Shown in pieces: positions 1 through 11,546 of a DNA stretch of 11,546 nucleotides (positions are counted from its first letter, which is position 1; each line of letters starts with the position of its first letter). Source of the stretch: a virus (lineage: Duplodnaviria; Heunggongvirae; Uroviricota; Caudoviricetes). Under the pieces are notes generated by a model, which was not told the origin of the DNA, made no database searches, and was given only the letters and a program-made list of their open reading frames with translations. The stretch covers positions 1 to 11,546 of IMG/VR virus record IMGVR_UViG_2713896901_000004; one strand, 5' to 3'. The position numbers were made by a program, and so were the translations under genes.

Positions 1-411
1 AAGCCCGCTTGCATTGATGACCATATCCACGGTGATGTTTTCATGTGTACCGAACCTGACAAGGACAGCAGCCCGCTTGTCGTCAGATAACTGATTAAAG
101 TTAACAATTTCTGCGTCAGGTTCAGGGGCGACCGGAACAAAGGAAGCCGACACCTCATTCCAGCGGTTTTCCTGCATATATTCGGAATCCCAGGAATCGA
201 GAGCAGGGCGGGCCATGCCGGGTTTATCCTCGCAGACAAGAAATTTATAAGCACAGTCCTGAGCTTCCGGGTATTGTTCCAGAAATAACCAGCTAAATTT
301 GGCTCTTGCCCGGCGTTCGTCGCCTGCTTCAATGGCAGTGGCCACAGGTTTAGCGCCTTCTGCTGTTGCCTGTTCGTCCGGAATGGCGGCGCAAATAAAG
401 ACTTTACTCAT
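1..411 (-). CDS. Hypothetical prophage protein, 3' end truncated by the window edge (137 codons visible)
   Basis: Open frame on the minus strand from ATG (plus 409-411) to the window start with no stop; GAGGT about 10 nt upstream of the ATG. It has no stop in the window, so it is absent from the ORF track. Translation starts MSKVFICAAIPDEQATAEGAKPVATAIEAGDERRARAKFSWLF. Sits where ydfE lies in the K-12 Qin dicB operon, but I do not recognise the sequence. Confidence 0.55.
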   Translation of the reverse strand, partial: MSKVFICAAIPDEQATAEGAKPVATAIEAGDERRARAKFSWLFLEQYPEAQDCAYKFLVCEDKPGMARPALDSWDSEYMQENRWNEVSASFVPVAPEPDAEIVNFNQLSDDKRAAVLVRFGTHENITVDMVINASGL

Positions 412-491
412 TTTGTTTTAACCTCATTACAGATTTAAGGGTGAACAAATCCCTGCCATTGCTGGCATATAAAAATGAAATCGGATATTAA

Positions 492-695
492 TTACGGTGC
501 TGTTTTAAGTCCTGCCGGGATTTCGTTATTGTCCATATGAATAACTTTATCGACCGGATAACAGTTACCGGGAATTTTTTGCTCTGCCGCGGCAGTCATG
601 CATTCTTCCATTGAGTCATGTATGTCAATAACAAGATCAATCGGTTCACCAGAAACAAAAAAAACAGTCAGAACGAGTACAAATGCCGTATTCAT
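492..695 (-). CDS. Small membrane protein with N-terminal hydrophobic segment, YdfD-like by position and size (67 aa)
   Basis: Preferred start MNTAFVLVLTVFFVSG: its ATG (plus 693-695) overlaps the stop of the upstream dicB-like gene (692-694) as ATGA on the minus strand, implying translational coupling. The track ORF 492..749 starts 18 codons earlier but without this coupling. Position after dicB matches ydfD in K-12 Qin (from memory). Confidence 0.5.
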   Translation of the reverse strand: MNTAFVLVLTVFFVSGEPIDLVIDIHDSMEECMTAAAEQKIPGNCYPVDKVIHMDNNEIPAGLKTAP

Positions 696-880
696 TGCCT
701 GCATCCTGTTTGCATCAGACGTAAACGGGCCAGCATCGAAACAATGCATATTTTATTTAGCAGTTCCTGTTCGTGTTTTCTTTTATTAATGGCATCTTCA
801 GTAAATATCTGATTGCTGATAGTGACACCAATTTCAAAACAACCTTCAGACGTATTAACGTTTGGTAATAACGTTTCCAT
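692..880 (-). CDS. dicB: DicB-like cell division inhibitor (62 aa)
   Basis: Internal start of track ORF 692..985, with GAGGA 7 nt upstream of the ATG (plus 878-880). Translation METLLPNVNTSEGCFEIGVTISNQIFTEDAINKRKHEQELLNKICIVSMLARLRLMQTGCRQ matches my recollection of E. coli DicB in length and most residues. Lies downstream of the dicF-like sRNA, as in Qin. Confidence 0.8.
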   Translation of the reverse strand: METLLPNVNTSEGCFEIGVTISNQIFTEDAINKRKHEQELLNKICIVSMLARLRLMQTGCRQ

Positions 881-1049
881 TATCGCGTCCTCAACAATGA
901 ATTTTGTGATGCGGTGCCTGGTGCCTCCAGGTGACGTTAACCAGTTAACAATTAACGCCGGATACAGAGAATCCACCCATAACACTGTTTTTAGCTTTAA
1001 CTGTTCCGCGTGCGCTTAGCCGCATTCACCGCATCACAAAATTCACTTT

Positions 1050-1105
1050 AAAAAGGGCGGACATCAGTTCATGGGCAAACAGATGCCGCCAAACGTCACC
1101 AGAAA
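1050..1105 (-). ncRNA. dicF: DicF-like Hfq-dependent sRNA
   Basis: Minus-strand sequence TTTCTGGTGACGTTTGGCGG... ends in a GC hairpin (GGCGG...CCGCC) followed by TTTTT. The 5' 20 nt match my memory of the K-12 DicF seed that targets ftsZ mRNA; the 3' hairpin differs. Located between ydfC and dicB as in Qin. Ends approximate. Confidence 0.7.
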
Positions 1106-1445
1106 ATTGATAACAGAGGGCGTTGCAGCGGGGTTGTCACTTAAGCGTATGGTCAACCTGACAACCCGGTGTCCTCAACGGGGAAGGAATAACCCCGCCA
1201 TACTTACCGCCGCGCCATTTCGCGGAGTGCCACAACCGGAAGCGCACGGTCGACGAAAATTTAACGACAGGCTATCTATGAACCAGCTACCTCGCCGTGC
1301 GCTTTCGCGTTATGGTCTGACTTTTCAGGGAAATATCCTTTCAGTAAACTGTCTGTGCCGGATGCTCACCCGTGTCCGGCGCACGCACTCCACCTCACCC
1401 GTGGAGAACTCCTTAATTACCAACCTTAGCTTCGTTGGTTAGCTA

Positions 1446-1664
1446 TTAACGCGGGTATGTAATCATTCTGGCAATGCTTAATGCCGCTGCTTTTTCCAGC
1501 CTGGTGATATCCTGCTCCAGAGCGGACAGATTTTCAGCCTGCTTATCCCTGGCTTCATTGGCCCATTTCAGATCCTGCGCTGCATTAATTTTCTGGCGCA
1601 TCCACTCATAAAGTTCATCATCGGTATAGTCTGGCGCGATGATGACGGGTTCTCGTTTCTGCAT
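1446..1664 (-). CDS. ydfC: YdfC-like small prophage protein (72 aa)
   Basis: Track ORF; GAGGA 6 nt upstream of the ATG (plus 1662-1664). Translation MQKREPVIIAPDYTDDELYEWMRQKINAAQDLKWANEARDKQAENLSALEQ; size and position match YdfC of the Qin dicB operon (recall). Confidence 0.65.
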   Translation of the reverse strand: MQKREPVIIAPDYTDDELYEWMRQKINAAQDLKWANEARDKQAENLSALEQDITRLEKAAALSIARMITYPR

Positions 1665-1693
1665 ACTGATTCCTCGCGGTGCTGCTTCGCTTA

Positions 1694-1822
1694 TCAGCCG
1701 TTAGATTTTGCCGAGCTGGAAAGCGCCTGTTTAAACTCACTGAAGCTGAGAGCTTCTTCGCCTTCGGCAAGGCCTTCGAAGTATTCTTCGTAAGCCTTTT
1801 CCATGATTGTGTCGAAATCCAT
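1694..1822 (-). CDS. ydfB: YdfB-like small protein (42 aa), below the ORF-track size cutoff
   Basis: Minus-strand ORF MDFDTIMEKAYEEYFEGLAEGEEALSFSEFKQALSSSAKSNG with AGGTGAG just upstream of the ATG (plus 1820-1822) and tandem stops (TGA TAA). Fills the gap between the ydfA-like and ydfC-like genes; size matches YdfB (recall). Confidence 0.65.
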   Translation of the reverse strand: MDFDTIMEKAYEEYFEGLAEGEEALSFSEFKQALSSSAKSNG

Positions 1823-1823
1823 A

Positions 1824-1979
1824 TCACTCACCTGAGTTTCTTTCCAGCCAGCGACGCGCGCCAGATTCGGTTTTAAACGTTTTGCTTTTGGTATACGTCA
1901 TCGCGGTGAACGTGCCGTCCTGGTTTGGGAACACGCCGCATACCAGAGATTCGTTGTTACCAAGATCGATAGTATCCAT
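1824..1979 (-). CDS. ydfA: YdfA-like small protein (51 aa, DUF1391-like)
   Basis: Internal start of track ORF 1824..2084: ATG (plus 1977-1979) preceded by GAGGT at 5-nt spacing. Translation MDTIDLGNNESLVCGVFPNQDGTFTAMTYTKSKTFKTESGARRWLERNSGE; a 51-aa product matches YdfA (recall). Confidence 0.7.
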   Translation of the reverse strand: MDTIDLGNNESLVCGVFPNQDGTFTAMTYTKSKTFKTESGARRWLERNSGE

Positions 1980-2055
1980 ATTGACCTCATTTCCCCTTAA
2001 CGCCGGGTAGCGGAACTGTTTGCTGAGAACACCGTGCGGTGTCTTGATGGGTGGT

Positions 2056-2084
2056 AATTTAGTTTTCTCATGAATGTTGGTCAA
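2056..2084 (-). promoter_or_regulatory. Candidate sigma70 promoter for the ydfA-ydfB-ydfC-dicF-dicB operon
   Basis: On the minus strand: TTGACC (plus 2079-2084), 17-nt spacer, TAAATT (plus 2056-2061). An inverted-repeat motif TGAGAAAACTCA (2095-2106) lies just upstream of the -35. Confidence 0.4.
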
Positions 2085-2168
2085 GTATTTTTAATGAGAA
2101 AACTCAATATTTAATGCAAAATAAAGCCAATACATTGAAATGTAAGGCTTTAAAATTTGTGAAGGGGG

Positions 2169-2576
2169 TTACTGATGTTTGTTACGTTTGCGAGCTTCTA
2201 GTAGCTCGGTGAATAGGCGATTAAAATTCTCAACGCGGGCACGGAGTTCGCTGATTTGTGCTTGCTGCTCTGATTTTGGAAGTGCGCGATACAATCGCAA
2301 CATCTCCAACTCATCTTCCGATAAGTCTAAGGCGCTGTTGAGTGCAACTGGTGGATCTGGTGTTTTATCCTCGTCACCAAACAGTATCCAAGTTGGTGAA
2401 CATTGCAATACCTCAGCCAGGCGATGCAAATTTTGCCCGCGCGGGGCTGTATGGTCGCTTTCCCATAGTGAAATTGATGAGCCAGATACGCCAGCGGCTT
2501 TGCTTAAATCGTTTTGACTTAAACCAACCTGTTTGCGTCTTTCTCTAATTCGTTGACCTAAAGTTTTCTCGTTCAT
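2169..2576 (-). CDS. dicA: DicA-like HTH (XRE-family) prophage repressor, 135 aa, no peptidase domain
   Basis: Track ORF. N-terminal HTH (QRIRERRKQVGLSQNDLSKAAGVSGSSISLWE) and the stretch VLQCSPTWILFGDEDK match my memory of E. coli K-12 DicA; same length (135 aa). Divergent from a Cro-like gene. Confidence 0.85.
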   Translation of the reverse strand: MNEKTLGQRIRERRKQVGLSQNDLSKAAGVSGSSISLWESDHTAPRGQNLHRLAEVLQCSPTWILFGDEDKTPDPPVALNSALDLSEDELEMLRLYRALPKSEQQAQISELRARVENFNRLFTELLEARKRNKHQ

Positions 2577-2653
2577 ATTTAGATATCTTAATAACCCTTG
2601 ACTTGAGATTCCTTGAGTGATTACTATTGAGAAAACTCAACTTTGGAGGGGTG
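2577..2653. promoter_or_regulatory. Divergent dicA/dicC intergenic control region with candidate rightward promoter and operator half-sites
   Basis: Rightward TTGACT (2598-2603), 18-nt spacer, TACTAT (2622-2627). Three TTGAG direct repeats and the inverted repeat TGAGAAAACTCA (2628-2639) overlap the -10 and start region. The same 12-mer recurs at 2095-2106. Confidence 0.5.
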
Positions 2654-2881
2654 ATGTTTAAATCAGACGTAATTAATTTTTATGGGACGAAAGCCAAAGT
2701 AGCGAAAGCTGCTGGTGTTGATCCATCTGCTGTTTCTCAATGGGGGGAACTGGTTCCTGAAGGTCGCGCGATGCGCCTGCAAGAGGCGTCCGGCGGGGAA
2801 CTTCAGTACGACCCCAAAGTTTATGACGAATATCGTAAGGCAAAGCGGGCGGGGCGGTTGAACAATGAAAATCACCCCTGA
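2654..2881 (+). CDS. dicC: Cro/DicC-like small DNA-binding protein (75 aa)
   Basis: ATG at 2654 with GGAGG 4 nt upstream; the track ORF begins at an upstream TTG (2627). Translation MFKSDVINFYGTKAKVAKAAGVDPSAVSQWGELVPEGRAMRLQEASGGELQYDPKVY resembles DicC/YdaS-type Cro-like proteins (recall). Divergent from dicA. Confidence 0.75.
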   Translation: MFKSDVINFYGTKAKVAKAAGVDPSAVSQWGELVPEGRAMRLQEASGGELQYDPKVYDEYRKAKRAGRLNNENHP

Positions 2882-3416
2882 ACAGGTTTGTGAGGCTCTG
2901 GATGCCTGGGTATGTCGACCAGGAATGACACAGGAGCAGGCGACGATATTAATCACGGAAGCATTCTGGGCTCTGAAAGAACGCCCGAACATCGATGTTC
3001 AACGCGTCACGTTTAATGATGGCGAGGTTGATCAACGGGCGCTGGGCGTTAACCGGGTGAAGATATTCGAACGCTGGAAAGCTATCGACACCAGGGATAA
3101 GCGGGAAAAATTCACGGCGCTGATTCCGGCAATTATGGAGGCTATCCGGATCAGCGATTTCAGGTTGTATTGTGAAATTACTGACGGAAAAAGCATTACG
3201 TACATGATCGCCGGGTTAAACAAAGAATATGGCGATGTGGTGGAGTCCGGGCTGCTTTTTGCGGATCCATCTGTTGTGGAACGTGAGACTGACGAGCTTA
3301 TAGAAAAAGCTATTGCTTTCAAGCATGCGTATCGTCAGCAATATCAATATTACTTTGCAGATAAACAAATGTCTGCCAGGGGTTCGTATGAGTATCGATG
3401 CACTACGATGGGCTAA
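2865..3416 (+). CDS. YdaT-like prophage protein occupying the CII position (183 aa)
   Basis: Track ORF; its start overlaps the end of the Cro-like gene by 17 nt. The motif REKFTALIPAIMEAI resembles YdaT-family proteins that follow Cro-like genes in Rac-type prophages (recall, unverified). Confidence 0.55.
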   Translation: MKITPEQVCEALDAWVCRPGMTQEQATILITEAFWALKERPNIDVQRVTFNDGEVDQRALGVNRVKIFERWKAIDTRDKREKFTALIPAIMEAIRISDFRLYCEITDGKSITYMIAGLNKEYGDVVESGLLFADPSVVERETDELIEKAIAFKHAYRQQYQYYFADKQMSARGSYEYRCTTMG

Positions 3417-4428
3417 AAAGGTGAAAACCGGCAGTTCATCCAGTAAGTCTGTATTGACCTGGCTTGCTGATATGTGCGGTGCCGATTTGTGTGCATACCC
3501 GTCTGTATCTGCACTGGCAGAAGTAACGGAACTGAACAAAAAGACTGTGCAGGACAGCTTACGACACCTGATGGAGATTGGGTTAATTGTTGATACCGGT
3601 GAGAGAAAAGGCAGAACAAAGCAAATTGTGGTGTACCGACTTATCGGTGTAGAAGAAAGTGTTGCCGAGCCTGAATACACCCAAAAACGGGAGTCTTTAA
3701 AGGTGGGTAAAATTGGTGCTGTTAATAAAAACAGTACCGAAAATGGTTATGTTTCAGCACAAAACAGACCCAAAAACGGAACTCTTAGCTGCATGGAAAA
3801 TAACCAAAGACACCCAAATTTTCCATCAAAGACACCCAAAAACGGATCACGGAACCCAAAGGAACCCAAAGATCTAAACCCCACACATAACGCACGCGAG
3901 AGTGCTCCGACCAGTGAGCAGGAAGTTTTATCGTTACAGGCAGCACCCCTTGTATTCCTGGATGGCCTGAGCGAACCCATCGGAAAATTTCCGATGACCG
4001 ATAGCTGGTATCCGTCACGGGATTTTCGACGACGGGCTGCGTTGTGGGGGATGGCTTTGCCGGAGACAGAATTTACACCTGCTGAACTTGCCGCCTTCCG
4101 GGACTACTGGGCAGCGGAGGGGAAAGTGTTTACGCAGATTCAGTGGGAGCAGAAATTCGCCCGTCACGTAAATCACGTCAGGGCGCAGGTTAAACCAGTC
4201 AGCAAGGGGGTAAGCCATGCAGCAGCACCAGGTAGTACCGCATCACGGGCAGTTCAGGAAATTCGGGCCGCACGTGAGCAGTGGGAACGTGAAAACGGAT
4301 TTATCAGCGACGGAAACGGCGTGGAAGTTGTGGGAGCTCATGGGGGAGGTTTATTCAAACCGCTGGACTCAGAAGAACGGGGCCGCACCTTCGACGCTCT
4401 GGATTGCACAGATTGGCGCGATGACTGA
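3388..4428 (+). CDS. Replication initiator candidate: N-terminal winged-helix domain, low-complexity linker, C-terminal DnaT-like domain (346 aa from the chosen start)
   Basis: Track ORF 3313..4428 starts at a TTG; I prefer ATG 3388 (MSIDALRWAKKVKTG...), which overlaps the upstream gene's 3' end. The linker coding region holds ACCCAAA iterons (3768-3870). Domain assignment is from pattern recall. Confidence 0.6.
   Translation: MSIDALRWAKKVKTGSSSSKSVLTWLADMCGADLCAYPSVSALAEVTELNKKTVQDSLRHLMEIGLIVDTGERKGRTKQIVVYRLIGVEESVAEPEYTQKRESLKVGKIGAVNKNSTENGYVSAQNRPKNGTLSCMENNQRHPNFPSKTPKNGSRNPKEPKDLNPTHNARESAPTSEQEVLSLQAAPLVFLDGLSEPIGKFPMTDSWYPSRDFRRRAALWGMALPETEFTPAELAAFRDYWAAEGKVFTQIQWEQKFARHVNHVRAQVKPVSKGVSHAAAPGSTASRAVQEIRAAREQWERENGFISDGNGVEVVGAHGGGLFKPLDSEERGRTFDALDCTDWRDD
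3760..3875. repeat. Iteron-like direct repeats (ACCCAAA core, 5 copies) inside the initiator gene; candidate replication origin
   Basis: ACCCAAA at 3768, 3812, 3834, 3854 and 3864. CAAAGACACCCAAA is exact at 3805-3818 and 3827-3840; ACCCAAAAACGGA is exact at 3768-3780 and 3834-3846; GGAACCCAAA is tandem at 3851-3870. Moderately AT-rich flank at 3715-3765. Resembles ori-lambda inside gene O. Confidence 0.45.
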
Positions 4429-4882
4429 GCAGCAAATCCGGCAGGTCTGCCGCCAGTGCATGGACCGCTGCCGGGCGGGTGAAACATGGCCCCCGGACCT
4501 GGCTGAGTTTGTGGCGCTGATTTCGGAAAGCGGGGCCAACCCATTTGGTCTGACTGTGGATGCCGTGATGGAAGAATACCGCCGCTGGCGCAATGAGTCA
4601 TGGCGATACGACGGAAGCGATAAATATCCGTGGTCACAGCCCGTGCTGTATCACATTTGCCTCGAGATGCGTTCAAAGGGGATTGAACGCCAGATGACCG
4701 AAGGGGAATTAAAACGGTTTGCAGAACGGCAGCTGACGAAATGGGCAAAGCATGTTAGTAACGGCCTGAGCGTTCCGCCAGTACGGCGACAACTGGCGGC
4801 ACCAAAACGCCCGTTGGGACCAACGCCAATTGAGTTGCTGAAACAGGAGTATGAACGCCGGAAAGCGGCTGGTTTTGTCTGA
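4421..4882 (+). CDS. Replication P-family (helicase-loader-like) protein candidate (153 aa)
   Basis: ATG 4421 overlaps the initiator stop (4426-4428) as ATGACTGA, implying coupling; the track ORF 4217..4882 starts earlier inside the initiator gene. Family call rests on position after the initiator and on recall; no Walker A motif, so not DnaC-like. Confidence 0.45.
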
Positions 4883-4916
4883 TTTGAGAAGTAATTTTTA
4901 CCGGGAGGAAATTTTA

Positions 4917-5678
4917 ATGGAAACCGTTTTTGATGCACTGAAAGCAATGGGAAAAGCCACGTCGGTAGAACTGGCTACGCGACTTGATATCAGTCGTGAA
5001 GAAGTGCTGAACGAGCTGTGGGAACTGAAAAAGGCTGGCTTCGTTGATAAAAGCGTATACACCTGGCGTGTGGCTTATAACAACGTTCAGCAGGAACAGC
5101 CAGCGCCGGCAGAACTGCCGGAAGAAACCACCACGGCAACAGTCGCTAAAATTTCGGAGAACGATTTAACTGCGACGATTGAACAACGTGGACCACAAAC
5201 GGCGGATGAACTGGCTACGCTGTTCGGTACCACATCCCGCAAAGTGGCTTCAACGCTGGCAATGGCAATCAGCAAAGGTCGTCTGATTCGTGTAAACCAG
5301 AACGGTAAATTTCGTTACTGCATACCGGGTGATAATTTACCAGCAGAGCCGAAAGTTGAATCGGTAGCGGAAACCGATGGTAAAGCCTTTCCTCAGCCAG
5401 CAGGTGTTGCGTTACCAGTACAGGAAGCTGCAACACAGGAAGATATTAAAACAGGAACTGTGGCTGATATTGTGCAATCGTTGCCATCGTTTACTGAAAC
5501 GCGAGCGGATGACCTGGTTTTACCATCGCTGCATATGGCAAACCGCGAATTGCGTCGGGCGAAAAGTCATGTCCAGAAGTGGGAGCGAGTCTGCGCCGCG
5601 CTGCGGGAGCTGAACAAGCACCGGGATATTGTTCGACAGATTACTGATTCTTCTCGCTGTGTTGCATCGGAAAAGTGA
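4917..5678 (+). CDS. Hypothetical protein with two tandem winged-helix-like segments (253 aa)
   Basis: ATG 4917 has GGAGG 8 nt upstream; the track ORF starts at 4851. Two similar segments (about residues 1-60 and 95-150) each look like a wHTH: ...[28 protein letters not shown]... and ...[30 protein letters not shown].... Confidence 0.6.
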
Positions 5679-5693
5679 TTGCCGGAGGCGCTT

Positions 5694-6185
5694 ATGGCAA
5701 AAGTATTTACACAAGAAGAGCGGGAAAAAATCAAGGGGCAGGTTGTTGAACTCGTGCGCCAGAGTGGGCGCGAGACGTTACGACAACTGGAAGCCAAGAC
5801 AGGTGCGACAAGATATCTGATGAGCATTCTCGCCAGAGAGCTGGTTGCCAGTGGTGATGTATACAACTCTGGCTACGGGTTATTCCCGTCTGAACAGGCC
5901 CGTAAGGACTGGCAAAACGCCCGCAAAAAACTATCCAGGGCTAAGGTGAAAAAAACGGTTGTGGTTGATCCTGACCTTATCTGGTCATTACCAGACGGAG
6001 AAATACGCCGCTACGACAGGCGTCAAAACATAATCTGTAGCGAGTGCCGGAAGAGCGAAGTTATGCAGCGCGTGCTGGCGTTTTATCAAGGAGGTGGCGC
6101 TGTGAGTGAAATTAGCTATCAGGCTTCAATTGCCGCTGGCATTCGCATCAAAGGAGAGGAGCATGGAAATAAAACCAGAAGATGA
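5694..6185 (+). CDS. Hypothetical prophage protein (163 aa)
   Basis: ATG 5694 with GGAGG upstream; the track ORF begins at 5679. No family recognised. Its 3' end overlaps the next gene by 23 nt. Confidence 0.55.
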   Translation: MAKVFTQEEREKIKGQVVELVRQSGRETLRQLEAKTGATRYLMSILARELVASGDVYNSGYGLFPSEQARKDWQNARKKLSRAKVKKTVVVDPDLIWSLPDGEIRRYDRRQNIICSECRKSEVMQRVLAFYQGGGAVSEISYQASIAAGIRIKGEEHGNKTRR

Positions 6186-6519
6186 GTTAAGTAATATTGT
6201 TTTATTTCCGGTAAAAGAGGATGACCCACGTAATCAGGTTAATTTTCTTTATGAGCCATCGAAAAGACCATATTGTCATCACGCCTCTGTCCGTGTTGAC
6301 GAAAAAGAGCGTCAGGTCCGCTGTAAAATCTGCGGTGCAGTTGTGGAGCCATTTGACTGGATGCTCTCTGTGGCGAAAAGAGAAACCAGACTGGCAGATG
6401 ATGTAAGGCTCTTGCGCCAGGAGGAACGGGAAAGGCGGAGAAATATAGAAAAGCTAATTCAGATTGAGCGTAACGCGAAAGCGCGGATACGCAGGGCGGC
6501 AAAATCAAGAACTGAATAA
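6163..6519 (+). CDS. Hypothetical protein with a Cys/His cluster and a basic coiled-coil-like tail (118 aa)
   Basis: ATG 6163 (MEIKPEDEL...) with GGAGAGGAG upstream; the track ORF starts at 6106. Motif C-H-H...C-x2-C (YCHHASVRVDEKERQVRCKICG), then an R/E-rich C-terminus. Confidence 0.5.
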   Translation: MEIKPEDELSNIVLFPVKEDDPRNQVNFLYEPSKRPYCHHASVRVDEKERQVRCKICGAVVEPFDWMLSVAKRETRLADDVRLLRQEERERRRNIEKLIQIERNAKARIRRAAKSRTE

Positions 6520-6612
6520 TTAAATTTAGCACTGTTAAAAATTTAATCCTTAACCGGAGGGATTTCTGCACCCTCAGAACATCAGGAGGCCGTTCGAAAT
6601 GGCGGTAGTGAA

Positions 6613-6795
6613 ATGCGAAAATTCAAAATAATTATTGAAACGGGAATAGCTGGTGGAGATTTTGAGGATGTATTCGAAGTAGATGATGACGCAACACCTG
6701 ATGAAATTCATGACGAAGCAAAAGAAATTTTCTTTAACTACTGCAATTACTCATATCACGAAATAAAAGGCGAGGAGGAAGAACAAAATGGCTGA
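6613..6795 (+). CDS. Small, strongly acidic hypothetical protein (60 aa)
   Basis: Track ORF; 18 of 60 residues are D/E, with a terminal EEEEQ run. No good SD directly upstream; instead AGGAGG (6584-6589) serves a 10-codon ORF (6599-6631) that overlaps this start out of frame. Confidence 0.4.
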   Translation: MRKFKIIIETGIAGGDFEDVFEVDDDATPDEIHDEAKEIFFNYCNYSYHEIKGEEEEQNG

Positions 6796-6964
6796 TTTTG
6801 GTTCAACTAAATACAACGTCAGTTTTGAAGAATGGCATGAACTGTTAATGGATTATGCAGAGTTACGTGGTGGAAGTGCTGCTGATGCTGAAGCCTGGCG
6901 TGATGACTACGAAGCAGGAAAAACACCTGTCGAAGCATATTGTGATGAGTGGGGCGATGAATGA
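6788..6964 (+). CDS. Small, strongly acidic hypothetical protein (58 aa), below the ORF-track cutoff
   Basis: ATG 6788 preceded by GAGGAGGAA. Translation MADFGSTKYNVSFEEWHELLMDYAELRGGSAADAEAWRDDYEAGKTPVEAYCDEWGDE. Its stop overlaps the next gene's start as ATGA (6961-6964), and its start overlaps the end of the previous acidic ORF. Confidence 0.5.
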   Translation: MADFGSTKYNVSFEEWHELLMDYAELRGGSAADAEAWRDDYEAGKTPVEAYCDEWGDE

Positions 6965-7476
6965 GCGAGATTAATTATCAGGAAGGGCATGAAACGGCAG
7001 GGCAGGCAAAACCAGTTGCATGGCGATATCGCTACGTGAAAAAAGGCGTTACGGACTTTCAGGAGAATCTGTGGGTTGGTGACTGGAAATATGTACCGAC
7101 AAAAGAGGATTGCAACGACAGGCCGAACTATGAAATTCAGGCCTTATTCGCTGCCCCGCCAGTTCCGGTGACATCAGAAGGACTGGTTAAAGCCGTGCGC
7201 TTTTATGAACAGGTAAAGCGTGAGAATCCACCAGTCGAAACAGGAGTATGGAAAGATGCTGTTGATTGGGTTCTCAAAGAGGCCTGCTGTGCTGTCATTC
7301 TGGGTAAAGCCGACAATCCATTAGCATCCAGTAACCAAGTTGGCGAATTAACAATGTGGGTTAAACGACTGGTCAGTCAACTGAAAAAAGCTAATCCAGA
7401 CTGCAAATTACCGGAGAAGGCGATGGACTACCTGAAGCGGAACGAACTGATAAGCGCGGAGGATGTTTTGCGATGA
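6961..7476 (+). CDS. Hypothetical prophage protein (171 aa)
   Basis: Track ORF, translationally coupled to the upstream small ORF. No family recognised. Confidence 0.55.
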   Translation: MSEINYQEGHETAGQAKPVAWRYRYVKKGVTDFQENLWVGDWKYVPTKEDCNDRPNYEIQALFAAPPVPVTSEGLVKAVRFYEQVKRENPPVETGVWKDAVDWVLKEACCAVILGKADNPLASSNQVGELTMWVKRLVSQLKKANPDCKLPEKAMDYLKRNELISAEDVLR

Positions 7477-7556
7477 CCTGGCCTGAAGCATTCACAACGG
7501 TAGGAATTGCAATAGCGGTGGCGCTGGTGGTGTATTCGATTTGCCACTGGATGTGA
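7473..7556 (+). CDS. Possible 27-aa single-pass membrane peptide
   Basis: ATG 7473 overlaps the stop of the 171-aa gene (ATGA). Translation MTWPEAFTTVGIAIAVALVVYSICHWM is mostly one hydrophobic helix. Not in the ORF track; very short, so low confidence. Confidence 0.3.
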   Translation: MTWPEAFTTVGIAIAVALVVYSICHWM

Positions 7557-7717
7557 GGTATTAAAAAACGCCCCGCACACAGACGTTGAGCGCCTGAGAT
7601 GTGGGGATAGGGAGTTAGTTAAATAGTTATACAACAATACCTGATTTTATATTGAAGCAAGAAATAGGTTGCTACATATTGAACCATGCGCGTGTACGTC
7701 AAATATGGGAGGTCATC

Positions 7718-7807
7718 GTGCTGGTTCTGAAATGTGCGCTGGCTATTGCGGCAGTAATGGCAATTTATTGTCTTGTTATCGTTCTTATGAATCACCTCTC
7801 TGATTGA
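7718..7807 (+). CDS. Possible 29-aa hydrophobic peptide with GTG start and strong SD
   Basis: GGGAGG (7707-7712), 5-nt spacer, GTG 7718. Translation (M)LVLKCALAIAAVMAIYCLVIVLMNHLSD. A candidate promoter TTGAAG-17-CATATT lies at about 7652-7680. Sits just upstream of the hok locus. Not in the ORF track. Confidence 0.3.
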   Translation: MLVLKCALAIAAVMAIYCLVIVLMNHLSD

Positions 7808-7814
7808 TTTTATA

Positions 7815-7843
7815 TTGGCGAGGTGACGTGAGTTAAGTAGAAT
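7815..7843 (+). promoter_or_regulatory. Candidate promoter of the hok/mok mRNA
   Basis: TTGGCG (7815-7820), 17-nt spacer, TAGAAT (7838-7843). The predicted start near 7850 precedes GGGTGCTTGAGGCTATCTGCCTC, which resembles the 5' end of plasmid R1 hok mRNA (recall). Confidence 0.45.
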
Positions 7844-7961
7844 TGCTGCGGGTGCTTGAGGCTATCTGCCTCGGGCATGAACACCAACGGCAGATAGAGA
7901 AAAGCCCCAGTTAACATTACGCGTCCTGCAAGACGTTTAACATTAATCTGAGGCCCAATCT

Positions 7962-8174
7962 ATGCTTCACAAACGTAGGTTAGCCTCTTACGTGCCGAAA
8001 GGCAAGGAGAAGCAGGCTATGAAGCAGCAAAAGGCGATGTTAATCGCCCTGATCGTCATCTGTTTAACCGTCATAGTGACGGCACTGGTAACGAGGAAAG
8101 ACCTCTGCGAGGTACGAATCCGAACCGGCCAGACGGAGGTCGCTGTCTTCACAGCTTACGAACCTGAGGAGTAA
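7962..8174 (+). CDS. mok: Mok-like reading frame: in-frame N-terminal extension of hok (70 aa)
   Basis: Track ORF; ATG 7962 with GAGG 8 nt upstream. It shares frame and stop with hok, as mokC does with hokC in E. coli K-12 (recall). Confidence 0.55.
   Translation: MLHKRRLASYVPKGKEKQAMKQQKAMLIALIVICLTVIVTALVTRKDLCEVRIRTGQTEVAVFTAYEPEE
8019..8174 (+). CDS. hok: Hok/Gef-family type I toxin (51 aa)
   Basis: ATG 8019 with AAGGAGA 8 nt upstream. Translation MKQQKAMLIALIVICLTVIVTALVTRKDLCEVRIRTGQTEVAVFTAYEPEE is a canonical Hok sequence, closest in my memory to HokD/RelF. Confidence 0.85.
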   Translation: MKQQKAMLIALIVICLTVIVTALVTRKDLCEVRIRTGQTEVAVFTAYEPEE

Positions 8175-8242
8175 GAGACCAGGCGGGGGAGAAATCCCTC
8201 GCCACCTCTGATGTGTCAGGCATCCTCAACGCACCCGCACTT

Positions 8243-8270
8243 AACCCGCTTCGGCGGGTTTTTGTTTTTA
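8243..8270 (+). terminator. Rho-independent terminator at the end of the hok mRNA
   Basis: CCCGC-TTCG-GCGGG hairpin (8245-8258) followed by TTTTTGTTTTT. Confidence 0.65.
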
Positions 8271-8282
8271 TTTTCAACGCGT

Positions 8283-8312
8283 TTGAAGTTTTAGATTGTG
8301 CCGGAATAGAAT
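8283..8312 (+). promoter_or_regulatory. Candidate sigma70 promoter for the downstream 86-aa gene
   Basis: TTGAAG (8283-8288), 18-nt spacer, TAGAAT (8307-8312). Confidence 0.35.
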
Positions 8313-8394
8313 CAAAAATACTTAAGTAGCGCGCAGGGAGAAGAGGGATGGACCCCGAACAGGGGAGTGCTATTTATCTGGAAGGATTCTGTTG

Positions 8395-8655
8395 ATGAAA
8401 ATCGAAGAATTACGTGAAATTTTTAGTGAAGATGGCCTCTATACTGTGCGCGTTGAGAATGGCGCTATTGTCAGCCACTGCCGTATTAAATGTTTACAGT
8501 CTCAACAAAGGAAGAGTGGAGCTGCGTTAATTCATTTTGTGGATGGGCTTGTGACGGATGGTTTTATTTTGCGTGCAAATGAATTTGTCACATCGTTGCC
8601 GTCTCTGAAAGAAGCTGGGATTAAGGCTGGTTTTTCTGCTTTTGAAGATGAGTGA
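8395..8655 (+). CDS. Hypothetical small prophage protein (86 aa); may correspond to rem of Qin by position
   Basis: ATG 8395; the track ORF starts at TTG 8392. AGGA about 9 nt upstream. Lies between hok and the DUF968 gene, where rem lies in K-12 Qin (recall); sequence identity not verified. Confidence 0.45.
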   Translation: MKIEELREIFSEDGLYTVRVENGAIVSHCRIKCLQSQQRKSGAALIHFVDGLVTDGFILRANEFVTSLPSLKEAGIKAGFSAFEDE

Positions 8656-8721
8656 ATTCATCTACAATTCAGCGCAGGGCTGAACCCCTGTTGAGTAACA
8701 CTGTGCCACCGGAGAAAGCCG

Positions 8722-9000
8722 ATGGCGCAAAATTCCAGACTACACAATTCTGATAATTCAGCCGTCTTTGCCAGCAGGCACGGGCGGCGTTCTCATGCAT
8801 TCAAATCTGACTGGTTCCAGCACGCCCCATGCACTGAAGAACAGGCCGAATGGCTGATTCAGAACTACCGCAGACGTGGGTATGAGTTTAGGAAAGCCCT
8901 CAGCCTCGATTATCGTCACTGGATAATCTCCGTCAGGCTTCCTTACTCTGAACGCCCACCGCGTCCGTCCCGCACATTCCAGCAACGCATCTGGAGGTAA
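8722..9000 (+). CDS. Hypothetical protein (92 aa), uncertain
   Basis: Track ORF with GGAG 8-11 nt upstream. Arg/Trp-rich composition and no recognisable family; could be a real small gene or a remnant. Confidence 0.3.
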   Translation: MAQNSRLHNSDNSAVFASRHGRRSHAFKSDWFQHAPCTEEQAEWLIQNYRRRGYEFRKALSLDYRHWIISVRLPYSERPPRPSRTFQQRIWR

Positions 9001-9010
9001 CCGGGTACTG

Positions 9011-9997
9011 GTGGAGCCGGAACCGAAAAGCATGCGTAATCTGCCGTCCGGGGTCGTTCCTGCCGTTCGCCAGCCGCTGGCGGAGGATAAATCATTACTG
9101 CCATTTTTCAGCGACGAACGAGTGATTCGTGCTGCTGGTGGCGCTGGCGCATTGTCTGACTGGTTACTGCGCCATGTTAAATCCTGCCAGTGGCCACACG
9201 GCGATTATCACCACAGTGAAACCGTCATTCACCGTTATGGTACCGGCGCAATGGTGTTGTGCTGGCACTGCGACAACCAGCTGCGTGACCAGGCATCCGA
9301 ATCACTCGAGCAACTTGCTCATCAAAACCTGTCAGCATGGATGATTAACGTCATCGGTCACGCAATAAGCGGTACGCAGGAGCGTGAATTATCTCTGGCT
9401 GAATTATCCTGGTGGGCGGTCCGCAATCAGGTGGCGGACGCGCTACCGGAAGCGGTATTACGTCGTTCGCTGGGGTTGCGTGCGGAAAAAATCCGCTCAA
9501 TGTACCGTGAAAGCGACATCGTACCGGGAGAGCAGACCGCCACCAGCATACTGAAGCAGCGCACAAAAAATCTTGCGCCGCTGCCTCACGCCCACCAGCA
9601 AAACCCGCCACAGGAAGAGGCGGTGGTCAGCAAAACCCCGCCACAGGAAGAGGCGGTGGTCAGCATTGCCGTTGATCCGGAGTCACCGGCTCAGTATCTC
9701 CAGCGCCAGAAACCACAACGGGAAGAGATGCCTGTATACACGCGCTGGGTAAAAACGCAGAAATGCATGACGTGCGGTAATCAGGCAGATGATCCGCATC
9801 ACATCATTGGTCATGGACTGGGAGGGATGGGAACAAAGGCTGATGATTTGTTTGTTATTCCGCTGTGCCGTAAATGCCATAGCGAACTACACGCCGGGGT
9901 AAAAGATTTTGAAGAAAAACACGGCAGCCAGCTGTTGTTGCTGATTCGTTTTTTAATGCACGCGAGAAATTCGGGTGTCCTGAAGTGGAAAGCATGA
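9011..9997 (+). CDS. ydfU: DUF968/YdfU-like protein with C-terminal Cys/His (HNH-like) motif (328 aa)
   Basis: Track ORF with GTG start at 9011; an alternative ATG is at 9032. C-terminal CMTCGNQADDPHHIIGHG...PLCRKCHSELH is a Cys-x2-Cys...His-His...Cys-x2-Cys-His arrangement typical of DUF968 proteins (recall). Contains a tandem 30-bp duplication (PPQEEAVVS twice). Confidence 0.65.
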   Translation: MEPEPKSMRNLPSGVVPAVRQPLAEDKSLLPFFSDERVIRAAGGAGALSDWLLRHVKSCQWPHGDYHHSETVIHRYGTGAMVLCWHCDNQLRDQASESLEQLAHQNLSAWMINVIGHAISGTQERELSLAELSWWAVRNQVADALPEAVLRRSLGLRAEKIRSMYRESDIVPGEQTATSILKQRTKNLAPLPHAHQQNPPQEEAVVSKTPPQEEAVVSIAVDPESPAQYLQRQKPQREEMPVYTRWVKTQKCMTCGNQADDPHHIIGHGLGGMGTKADDLFVIPLCRKCHSELHAGVKDFEEKHGSQLLLLIRFLMHARNSGVLKWKA

Positions 9998-10363
9998 ATG
10001 ACTGAACGCATAGAATTTGTTTTGCCTTACCCGCCGACGGTGAATACCTACTGGCGACGTCATGGCAATACGTATTTCATCTCGGAGGCCGGAAAGCGTT
10101 ATCGCCATGATGTGGCGCTAATTGTTCGCCAGCAGCGGTTGAAATTAAACCTGTCCGGAAGGCTGGCGATAAAGATTATTGCAGAGCCATCGGATAAGCG
10201 CCGTCGTGACCTGGACAATATCCTGAAAGCACCACTGGATGCGCCGACGCATGCCGGACTACTCATAGACGACGAGCAGTTTGATGAAATCAATATTGTG
10301 CGCGGTCAGCTCGTTCCTGGTGGGCGGCTGGGGATAAAAATCACAGAATTGGAGTGCGCATGA
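9998..10363 (+). CDS. rusA: RusA Holliday-junction resolvase (121 aa)
   Basis: Track ORF; its ATG abuts the upstream stop. Translation MTERIEFVLPYPPTVNTYWRRHGN...RRRDLDNILKAPLDA...GGRLGIKITE matches the RusA family pattern, including the catalytic RRRDLDN region (recall of E. coli RusA). Confidence 0.85.
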   Translation: MTERIEFVLPYPPTVNTYWRRHGNTYFISEAGKRYRHDVALIVRQQRLKLNLSGRLAIKIIAEPSDKRRRDLDNILKAPLDAPTHAGLLIDDEQFDEINIVRGQLVPGGRLGIKITELECA

Positions 10364-11049
10364 ATAACCAGTATTTACAGTTTGTGCGTGAGCAGCTCAT
10401 TATCGCCACCGCTGATTTGAGTGGGGCAACAAAAGGTCAGCTTGAAGCCTGTCAGGAGAATGCCATGTTCGATACAGGGCGTTACAGGCGAAAAAAAATC
10501 CGGTACCGCGATGAAGTGACTGGAAAAATGATAACGCGGGATAATCCACCAATCCCGGGAAAACAATCACTGGCGAATGGCTCATCAATTGCCCTGGTCA
10601 GCCCGGTTGAGTTTTCGACATCATCATGGCGGCGGGCTTTGCTGTCTCTTGAAGAGCATCATAAAGCCTGGTTGTTGTGGTGTTACGGCGAGAGTATTTG
10701 TTGGGAATATCAGATCGCGATAACACAGTGGGCGTGGAATGAATTTAATACTCAATCCGGTACCAGAAAAATTGCAGGGAAAACGCAGGAACGCCTGAAA
10801 AAATTAATCTGGCTGGCGGCGCAGGCAGTAAAAGCAGAACTTTTTGGTGGGGAAGGTTATGAATACCAGGAGCTGGCATTACTGGCGGGAGTGACAACTA
10901 AAAACTGGTCCAAAACATTTACTCGTCACTGGGTTGCAATGAAACACATTTTTCACCGACTTGATAGTGAGGCTTTATTGTTTGTAATGAGAACACGTTC
11001 AAAACAAAAGGCGGCATTTTCAAAGCAAAGTGTTGCAAAAGTAGATTGA
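10360..11049 (+). CDS. Late-gene antiterminator Q candidate (229 aa)
   Basis: ATG 10360 overlaps the rusA stop (ATGA) with GGAG 5 nt upstream; the track ORF begins at GTG 10354. Call rests on position (after rusA, before a PR'-like promoter, a short-transcript terminator and a tRNA cluster) plus partial recall of Q-family proteins. Confidence 0.55.
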   Translation: MNNQYLQFVREQLIIATADLSGATKGQLEACQENAMFDTGRYRRKKIRYRDEVTGKMITRDNPPIPGKQSLANGSSIALVSPVEFSTSSWRRALLSLEEHHKAWLLWCYGESICWEYQIAITQWAWNEFNTQSGTRKIAGKTQERLKKLIWLAAQAVKAELFGGEGYEYQELALLAGVTTKNWSKTFTRHWVAMKHIFHRLDSEALLFVMRTRSKQKAAFSKQSVAKVD

Positions 11050-11061
11050 AAGGCATATATT
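11033..11061 (+). promoter_or_regulatory. PR'-like late promoter candidate
   Basis: TTGCAA (11033-11038), 17-nt spacer, TATATT (11056-11061), overlapping the 3' end of the Q-like gene. Predicted start near 11068; a terminator follows about 45-70 nt downstream, as with lambda PR'/tR'. Confidence 0.45.
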
Positions 11062-11112
11062 TCATGCAAATCTGATATTTTGCCGATTTTGTACGTGATG
11101 GCAAAAGCAAAC

Positions 11113-11141
11113 AAAACCCGCCCACAAGCGGGTTTTGTTTG
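11113..11141 (+). terminator. tR'-like rho-independent terminator
   Basis: AACCCGC-CCACAA-GCGGGTT hairpin (11115-11134) followed by TTGTTTG. Confidence 0.6.
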
Positions 11142-11258
11142 CCACTTATCTCGGATAGACATGGTGAATGCGCTGGTGGAGGAGGTAAGGGTAATTTTTA
11201 ATCAGGTGATTCTTGAATGCTTGCAACATTTATTTCGTAACGTTATTATCCTGCGCCC

Positions 11259-11334
11259 GGCCCTTTAGCTCAGTGGTGAGAGCGAGCGACTCATAATCGC
11301 CAGGTCGCTGGTTCAAATCCAGCAAGGGCCACCA
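11259..11334 (+). tRNA. tRNA-Ile2-like, anticodon CAU (lysidine type), 76 nt
   Basis: Cloverleaf folded by hand: acceptor GGCCCTT/AAGGGCC, D-arm GCTC...GAGC, anticodon loop CTCATAA, T-loop TTCAAAT, 3' CCA. Closely resembles my memory of E. coli ileX. Met versus Ile2 cannot be decided from sequence alone. Confidence 0.8.
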
Positions 11335-11335
11335 A

Positions 11336-11412
11336 CCGTCAGCAGTTCATCAGGAAAGAGCGTCAACCCTTTAAGTTGAGTGTGCGAGGTTCGAGTCCCC
11401 GGTGGCGGTCCA
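11336..11412 (+). tRNA. tRNA-like gene with noncanonical features; anticodon loop reads CCUUUAA (UUU, Lys-type by position), identity uncertain
   Basis: Hand fold: acceptor 6 of 7 pairs (one G.U, one G/G mismatch), D-stem GTTC/GAGC with one G.U, perfect anticodon stem TCAAC/GTTGA, T-arm CGAGG-TTCGAGT-CCCCG with one A/C mismatch, 3' UCCA. Position 8 is C and position 33 is C, both atypical. Confidence 0.45.
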
Positions 11413-11414
11413 GT

Positions 11415-11490
<76 letters not shown>

Positions 11491-11493
11491 TAT

Positions 11494-11546
<53 letters not shown>

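Follow-up and report, generated by a model that had tools for sequence, protein, structure and literature searches.

Does a cluster of short direct repeats lying inside the replication initiator gene of a prophage mark the place where that prophage starts its replication? The question is raised by positions 1 to 11,546 of the viral record IMGVR_UViG_2713896901_000004 (Caudoviricetes; hereafter the window, meaning this whole 11.5-kb stretch of DNA), which represent the early region of an Escherichia coli lambdoid prophage. That an origin can lie within the initiator gene is textbook knowledge from lambda, and an earlier reading made without database searches (the sequence-only reading) had compared the locus with ori-lambda inside gene O. 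That comparison is supported by the three codon phases of the repeats, their location in a linker-coding region, their position across the family, the conservation of their synonymous sites, their modularity and the presence of a P-like gene. We consider it likely that the array, at about 3677–3882, is the replication origin of the prophage and lies where its own initiator gene encodes the linker, because the repeats form a one-strand cluster, are under selection as DNA, keep the same position throughout the family, are inherited as a module and are followed by a P-like gene downstream.

The repeat array and the selection acting on it

The heptamer ACCCAAA occurs six times in the whole window (at 3679, 3768, 3812, 3834, 3854 and 3864), in all cases on the + strand and within 192 bp. 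The sequence-only reading had listed five of these cores in an array at 3760–3875. All five were found there, but the copy at 3679 had been overlooked and the true span starts about 90 bp further left. The longer repeats it had named were all located, comprising the 14-mer CAAAGACACCCAAA (3805–3818 and 3827–3840), the 13-mer ACCCAAAAACGGA (at 3768 and 3834) and the tandem GGAACCCAAA x2. The array encodes amino acids (aa) 97–165, within a linker that is disordered in the AlphaFold2 model, and contains four good iterons (R1–R4) and two decayed copies between 3677 and 3849, all on the + strand (Table 1); the consensus across the family is CCCAAAAACGGG. R1 sits in a 26-nt run identical to the Edwardsiella phage EPP-1 and has a dyad, CCC-AAAAAC-GGG, whose extended arms are 5/6 symmetric. 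The degenerate iteron at 3733–3746 includes CCGAAAACGG, the core used by the Vibrio phage H20. In the orthologs the counterpart of R3 is CCCGTTTTTTCC, and similar variants were found in the Burkholderia phage Bcep176 and in locus L026. The only two GATC (Dam) sites in 3300–4500 are found at the array's right end, 26 bp from one another (3845–3848 and 3871–3874), both being conserved in several orthologs; GATC occurs 16 times in the window as a whole, compared to about 45 expected from its length alone.

The ACCCAAA cluster is not due to chance. In 2000 first-order Markov simulations the heptamer reached a maximum of 2 copies per 200 bp, compared to the six observed, and the best cluster of any 7-mer held at most 4 copies versus 6. 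Synonymous recoding of aa 92–166 (5000 trials) gave on average 0.54 copies of ACCCAAA with a maximum of 3, and left at most 16 repeated 9-mers versus 35 observed; codon-order shuffles agreed with this result. A scan for 7-mer clusters found no comparable repeat cluster elsewhere in the window.

The six copies start in codon phases 1, 3, 2, 3, 2 and 3 and encode TQK, RPK, HPN, TPK, NPK and EPK, respectively. As they fall in three codon phases and encode differing tripeptides, the repeated entity is the DNA and not the peptide. Synonymous sites were compared in five orthologs sharing about 55% protein identity (from the window, Salmonella, Klebsiella, Enterobacter and Yokenella) by counting, among the codons of invariant, degenerate amino acids, those that were fully invariant. 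Inside the elements this applied to 8/13 codons, compared to 2/59 in the well-conserved N-terminal domain (Fisher p = 4e-6), the invariant codons including T98, Q99 and R101 in R1 and P150, K151 and N152 in R4. This indicates that purifying selection acts on the nucleotides of the repeats themselves.

The right end of the array has a different character. Past the last iteron, relatives carry two to four short tandem repeats (10–13 bp) containing GAAYC, which rotate through the codon phases and often have an A-rich run after them. They take the form of AACCAGTCATAT x3 in the Escherichia phage phiV10 (gene nt ~400–450), AGAACCAGTCAT(T) x3 at 13/12 bp and in rotating phases in H20 (gene nt ~465–510), GAATCTWYCAAA x3 followed by an A-rich run in Acinetobacter, and GGAACAGTAG x4 in Bcep176; a GAAYC-type element was also found in locus L015 (gene nt ~475–520). 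The enteric orthologs carry GGAATCTACCAAGGAACCATAAAGATC after the last iteron, aligned with GGAACCCAAA x2 of the window. Across loci, GAAYC was counted 35 times in the 60 nt past the last iteron compared to 3.4 expected, a conservative figure from non-independent loci, as the iteron pattern was too strict in several of them, including the window, and the last iteron was misplaced there. Since GGAACCCAAA x2 aligns with the GAAYC tandem repeats of relatives, the two ACCCAAA copies inside it, which the sequence-only reading had taken for iterons, are probably a separate conserved element (class II element). In analogy to the 13-mers found in oriC and in iteron plasmids, we suggest this element as a candidate unwinding element or second binding site.

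Natural variants affect both kinds of repeat. A 324-aa allele of the initiator has lost exactly 66 bp, which fuses R2 to R4, both in the same codon phase. In strain UTME-2, one 10-bp GGAACCCAAA unit has been lost, leading to a frameshift and a split gene; there (locus L009, 1501–2531) the slippage deletion has left a helix-turn-helix (HTH) open reading frame and a DnaT-domain pseudogene. The GGAACCCAAA repeat is a mutational hot spot able to inactivate the prophage replicon, and the copy-number variants arose through iteron-iteron recombination and slippage.

The initiator protein and the inheritance of its array

The sequence-only reading had placed the repeats in a linker between an N-terminal winged HTH and a C-terminal DnaT-like domain, and AlphaFold2, Pfam and Foldseek agree on this architecture. 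The model shows an N-terminal winged helix (aa 3–85; helices at aa 3–63, beta hairpin at aa 67–85) and a linker (aa 89–195) without secondary structure and with a predicted local distance difference test score (pLDDT) below 50. The N-terminus matched Pfam HTH_36 (3e-4), and the Foldseek matches of the winged helix were to ArsR, MarR, CodY and Rep proteins, with the Rep-DNA complex (5kbj, 4pql) listed among them. The C-terminal DnaT-type domain (about aa 200–267), of the single-stranded DNA (ssDNA)-binding kind, matched Pfam DnaT (PF17948; E = 6.5e-17) and, by Foldseek, the DnaT structures 4ou6/6aeq (TM 0.9, 50–58% identity). The NCBIfam equivalog for primosomal DnaT (NF002770) gave 93.7 bits at a cut-off of 201, with only aa 194–272 matching. 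The protein as a whole matched PHROG 1032, 'replication initiation protein' (3.5e-55). No Rep_3 or RepA match was found with Pfam, and no significant match came from searching PDB sequences with a profile. The initiator was not placed in the Pfam lambda O family (Phage_rep_O, PF04492), since it had no match to that family at E ≤ 0.01, BLASTP against lambda O found nothing, and hhalign of the N-terminal domain against lambda O aligned the correct region with a probability of 3%. The sole other link between the N-terminal domain and lambda O was that both proteins match phrog_678 and phrog_345, and their relation thus appears to be indirect, through PHROG profiles common to both.

Related initiators were found in phages of Klebsiella, Enterobacter, Salmonella, Acinetobacter, Vibrio and Burkholderia, labelled only as 'DnaT-like ssDNA-binding domain-containing protein' or 'primosomal protein'. 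When the N-terminal 161 aa were used in tblastn, homologs turned up in several phages, namely EPP-1 (60% identity), Bcep176 (43%), the Escherichia phages phiV10 and EC.W1-9 (39–40%), and Acinetobacter AP22 and Vibrio H20 (about 35% each). Scanning one genome per species brought in another 22 loci, among others from Acinetobacter, Proteus, Providencia, Pseudoalteromonas, Oxalobacter and a Beijerinckiaceae metagenome-assembled genome (MAG). The 25 loci then compared encode homologs of the N-terminal domain and belong to Gamma-, Beta- and Alphaproteobacteria and their phages; each was scanned over its whole length (4–11.5 kb) for its largest family of 10-mers with at most one mismatch. The strongest repeat family lay just after the winged-helix coding part, at gene nt ~255–535, in 23/25 loci. 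Copies number 3–11 per locus and are spaced mostly by 17, 22 or 24 bp with rotating codon phases (17- and 22-bp periods in Acinetobacter, Bcep176 and loci L010 and L026), and the core common to the family is CCC(A/G)AAAACGG(G). Helical phasing was considered as a general rule and dropped, as the window's spacings of 22, 44 and 66 bp fit multiples of 11 bp but the 17- and 24-bp periods of relatives do not.

The sequence on the 5' side of the core differs by clade. The window's own clade has ACA there, and the clade of phiV10 and Proteus has a TGAAT-type flank. CAGT precedes the core in Acinetobacter, Bcep176 and the Beijerinckiaceae MAG, in which the recognition-helix region has the sequence DRKTVL. 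Covariation of this flank with the clade of the N-terminal domain is suggestive.

The array also moves with the N-terminal domain. The YdaU protein of the prophage Rac-SA53 shares only aa 161–346 with the window's initiator (BLASTP, 84% identity), and among 14 further proteins, which represent three or more other N-terminal types, the C-terminal sharing begins at aa 158–163 in 12, and at aa 125 and 145 in the other two. The corresponding junction in the gene (nt 3868–3882 of the window) coincides with the right end of the array. A locus with a 'phage replisome organizer' N-terminus (L038) has about nine copies of (ACAT)GTCACG at 10–11-bp spacing, followed by the same junction sequence GATCTAAAAGAATTAAACCCCACACAT; its repeats lie at L038 coordinates 1292–1356 and 1575–1670, with a second (ACAT)GTCACG cluster in the N-terminal coding part. 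The array is swapped for a different one when the N-terminal domain is swapped, in an unchanged ydaT-P-DUF1627 context. On these sequence comparisons, N-terminal domain and array are inherited together as a module. This corresponds to the classic lambdoid pattern, in which the DNA-binding domain travels with its sites and the C-terminal domain with the helicase loader.

Probable origin function, rival explanations and proposed mechanism

Several findings weigh against an origin at this position. No pronounced lambda-like AT-rich unwinding tract lies beside the array, and the least stable 40-mers of the gene (3696–3735 and 3793–3832), both inside the array, have a z of only 1.5–1.9 versus the whole window. 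DnaA-box-like sites within one mismatch are absent from 2500–5000, and no sites for integration host factor (IHF) were found. Good dyad symmetry is confined to R1, as the right arms of R2 and R4 are imperfect (GGA for GGG) and R3 is without one. The relatives' 17- and 24-bp spacings are not whole helical turns. Two of the 25 homolog loci (L025 and L031) are without a clear array in the whole-locus scan, as are Rac-type DUF1376 initiators, which have the same C-terminal domain (Rac-SA53 control, with a different N-terminal domain). The compared loci are not phylogenetically independent, and a small circular record that carries the module (below) could be an assembly artefact.

The lack of a strong AT-rich tract and of DnaA or IHF boxes beside the array would also fit repeats that are bound by the initiator for regulation, with strand opening and helicase loading taking place elsewhere. 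Autoregulation by an intragenic transcriptional roadblock, copy-number control and incompatibility of co-resident prophages are the roles that could be proposed; the sites do lie within a transcribed gene, downstream of a pR-like promoter, and with up to four module copies in some E. coli genomes cross-talk is possible. A purely regulatory array is nevertheless unlikely in our view, as every characterised relative with this layout (lambda and the Shiga toxin (Stx) phages; PMC7466680) has its origin in the intragenic iterons, the conserved short-tandem-repeat element directly adjoins the iterons, as expected of an origin, and the 11.5-kb window holds no second comparable repeat cluster. Several HTH proteins are encoded near the initiator, including a DUF1627 HTH protein, and this would allow for the array being a platform for one of these, for YdaT or for a host factor, instead of for the initiator's N-terminal domain. 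Such a platform is hard to reconcile with the co-segregation of the array and this domain where the neighbouring genes differ (a DnaB-like helicase in AP22, others in H20 and EPP-1), or with the replacement of the array along with the domain where the neighbours stay constant, and we give it very little credence.

The repeats could, finally, be a by-product of a repetitive, slippage-prone linker (PKNG/TPKNG) that is either neutral or selected at the protein level. The motif P-K/E-N-G does recur, with units in frame at a 24-bp period in phiV10, H20 and Proteus, the linker, disordered by prediction, tolerates indels, and one 10-bp slippage variant is known. Against this stand the three codon phases and differing tripeptides of the window's copies, the rotating phases of relatives with 17- and 22-bp periods, synonymous sites that are frozen in the repeats and free in the conserved domain, and a repeat content never reached by synonymous recoding. 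The codon-phase and synonymous-site results largely refute the by-product explanation, which we regard as highly improbable.

For the array as origin, we infer initiator binding to the repeats, unwinding and helicase loading in the following order. Upon derepression, transcripts started at the pR-like promoter would run across cro, ydaT and the initiator gene. The winged-helix N-terminal domain, probably as a dimer, would then bind R1, R2 and R4 (core CCCAAAAACGG(G/A)), the variant R3 and the two decayed copies, resulting in an O-some-like complex. This complex may destabilise nearby DNA, either at the low-stability stretches inside the array, at the adjacent GGAACCCAAA tandem element, or at both. 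The C-terminal DnaT-type domain would engage ssDNA and/or the P-like protein, and the latter would bring the host DnaB.

A more specific proposal, which we hold only tentatively and think rather doubtful, is a two-part origin mechanically unlike that of lambda, in which the winged helix would bind the iteron core CCCAAAAACGG, the GAAYC repeats would open, and the DnaT domain would capture ssDNA in members of the DnaT type. The core CCCAAAAACGG is conserved from enterobacteria to Burkholderia and Beijerinckiaceae. If the proposal were true, one initiator would both recognise its origin and hold it open; DnaA and plasmid Rep proteins both recognise and hold open origins. With a core this conserved, prophages in the same cell could fire or titrate each other's origins.

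A possible natural minimal replicon was found among E. coli sequences. The circular 8,461-bp record NZ_CP148379.1 (in PLSDB and RefSeq) holds the repressor, cro, ydaT, initiator and P genes with a few cargo genes, and no plasmid replicon could be typed in it. It corresponds to window 2016–5134 plus 7782–8685, with different cargo between, circularised. Provided that the circle exists in the cell, it would be a natural mini-replicon of the lambda-dv kind and would place the origin within that segment. The circle joins the equivalents of window positions 2016 and 8688 at a CTGTT microhomology. The module is also found on the circular E. coli record NZ_CP148543.1 (15,643 bp, no typed replicon), which likewise comprises the region from repressor to P together with cargo, and on a 53-kb Klebsiella circle. 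A common endpoint of both small circles near window 2016 was considered and dropped, the start of the 15.6-kb record being an arbitrary coordinate origin. The two small E. coli circles could be lambda-dv-like mini-replicons or assembly artefacts.

Gene neighbourhood, known systems and significance

Features of the window are listed in Table 1.

Table 1 Features of the array, the initiator gene and its neighbours in the window.
Feature	Position	Strand	Sequence	Remarks
CI/DicA-like repressor gene, immunity region	2169–2576	-		Pfam HTH_3, E = 1.2e-16; named dicA in PPompW prophages
pR-like promoter-like site	2598–2627	+		Consensus scan, 9/12 matches; pattern match only
Cro-like gene	2654–2881	+		Pfam P22_Cro, E = 1.4e-17; coordinates per PPompW annotation
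YdaT-family gene upstream of initiator	2865–3416	+		Pfam YdaT_toxin; conserved synteny
Replication initiator gene, 346 aa	3388–4428	+		Pfam DnaT, HTH_36; PHROG 1032
Iteron R1	3677–3694	+	ACACCCAAAAACGGGAGT	Best full site, CCC/GGG dyad arms
Degenerate iteron remnant	3702–3719	+	GGTGGGTAAAATTGGTGC	Aligns with perfect EPP-1 copy GACACCCAAAAACGGTGC
Degenerate iteron	3733–3746	+	AGTACCGAAAATGG	79% match to R2; perfect copy aligned in EPP-1
Iteron R2	3766–3783	+	AGACCCAAAAACGGAACT	ACCCAAA core at 3768
Iteron variant R3	3810–3827	+	ACACCCAAATTTTCCATC	T-rich centre
Iteron R4	3832–3849	+	ACACCCAAAAACGGATCA	Includes GATC at 3845
Class II element, tandem x2	3851–3870	+	GGAACCCAAA	TRF; ortholog alignment
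Mosaic junction	3868–3882	+	AAAGATCTAAACCCC	GATC at 3871; beyond here the gene is common to initiators with other N-termini
Lambda-P-like helicase-loader gene	4421–4882	+		Pfam Phage_lambda_P, 2.5e-16; PHROG 109 'P-like helicase loader', 3e-62

Compared with its counterpart in PPompW prophages of Shiga toxin-producing E. coli (STEC), the initiator gene shows 98% identity, and its first 513 bases are present in 908 of 5,426 complete E. coli genomes, carriers of the module including O157:H7, O111 and O121 STEC prophages; some genomes hold up to four copies. It is flanked by cro/ydaT on one side and by Q/lysis-side prophage genes on the other. The order repressor-cro-ydaT-initiator-P is conserved in the loci from Salmonella, Klebsiella, Enterobacter and Yokenella. 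Transcripts starting at the pR-like site would cover the array as well as cro, ydaT and the initiator gene; the number of promoter-like sites across the region covered by the consensus scan was not above chance. The lambda-P-like gene, with its start set as in the RefSeq annotation of strain UTME-2, overlaps the 3' end of the initiator gene. At its other end, the initiator gene shares its first 29 nt with the ydaT-family gene, and the two genes are syntenic in each of the enteric orthologs examined.

Further along, the window encodes a hok/sok type I toxin-antitoxin locus (7850–8174; Rfam sok, 113 bits at 7850–8024; Hok/Gef open reading frame at 7962–8174) and a DUF968/HNH-like gene (9011–9997) with a 33-bp tandem repeat at 9596–9665 (2.2 copies, 97% match), which results in a duplicated peptide, PPQEEAVVS. 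Three tRNA genes (11259–11546), the last of them truncated by the end of the window, lie downstream of the antiterminator Q gene (10354–11049), an arrangement as in Stx-type lambdoid phages.

The array shares much with the origin of lambda. The direct repeats of both combine a C-rich arm with an A-tract and a CG-G-rich arm (lambda ATCCCTCAAAACGAGGGA, here ACACCCAAAAACGGGAGT), and the lambda iterons lie at gene nt 349–433 (spacings of 20, 24 and 23 bp), a similar gene position to that in the window's family. In both cases the gene lies downstream of a cro/pR region and is followed by a P-type helicase-loader gene. Iterons midway along the initiator gene, within its interdomain region and with rotating codon phases, are likewise found in lambda and in the Stx phages P27 and 933W, where the N-terminal domain and the iterons also form one module and iteron number varies among relatives. 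The P27 and 933W origins have six iterons each (PMC7466680). Unlike in lambda, the C-terminal domain of the window's initiator is of the DnaT type and not of the O type, the iterons are more spread (22 to 89 bp compared to 20–24) and partly decayed, and a GAAYC short tandem repeat is found instead of the A/T-rich tract to the right of the array.

Similarities to other replication systems were also evident. Iteron plasmids (RK2, pPS10, F, P1, R6K and those with staphylococcal RepA_N) have 17–22-bp direct repeats, a winged-helix initiator and, beside the iterons, short tandem repeats that form the unwinding element, and several relatives of the window share 22-bp periods with them. Plasmid iterons lie outside the rep gene, however, and DnaA boxes are usual there, in contrast to window 2500–5000. 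With E. coli DnaT the initiator shares the C-terminal ssDNA-binding three-helix domain, but its N-half is a winged-helix DNA-binding domain instead of the DnaT N-terminal domain, and the gene is a prophage gene.

The architecture of the window's initiator, an HTH_36 N-terminus and a DnaT C-terminus directly upstream of a P homolog, is identical to that of DopC, which is encoded next to the lambda-P homolog DopE in Cellvibrionales and Oceanospirillales (Brezellec et al. 2017, PMC5509034). DopC and DopE were presented as domesticated derivatives of lambda O and P; no iterons were found in dopC, and according to the authors it is no longer origin-marking (PMC5509034). DopC is chromosomal and without iterons, whereas in the window the gene is part of a prophage immunity/replication module and has them. 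Based on sequence, the window's initiator looks like the undomesticated phage form of DopC.

We found no prior description of iterons in this initiator family (searching for DnaT-like, phiV10 and epsilon15 initiators and for the core sequence, with incomplete coverage of the literature). A paper on pABTJ2 was considered as such a description and set aside, as it concerns the origin of an unrelated Rep_3 plasmid. The locus very probably represents a lambda-style origin in a sister family of the O-like initiators, a result that is solid but expected.

Knowing where the origin lies and what form its iterons take would allow rational studies of the replication of these prophages, and enables the study of cross-talk and incompatibility among prophages residing in the same cell. 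Arrays of CCC(A/G)AAAACGG followed by GAAYC repeats would provide an origin-marking signature for the family. The initiator gene of the window would moreover be an iteron-bearing phage counterpart of the domesticated DopC/DopE system, which supports the published view that the loss of iterons accompanied domestication.

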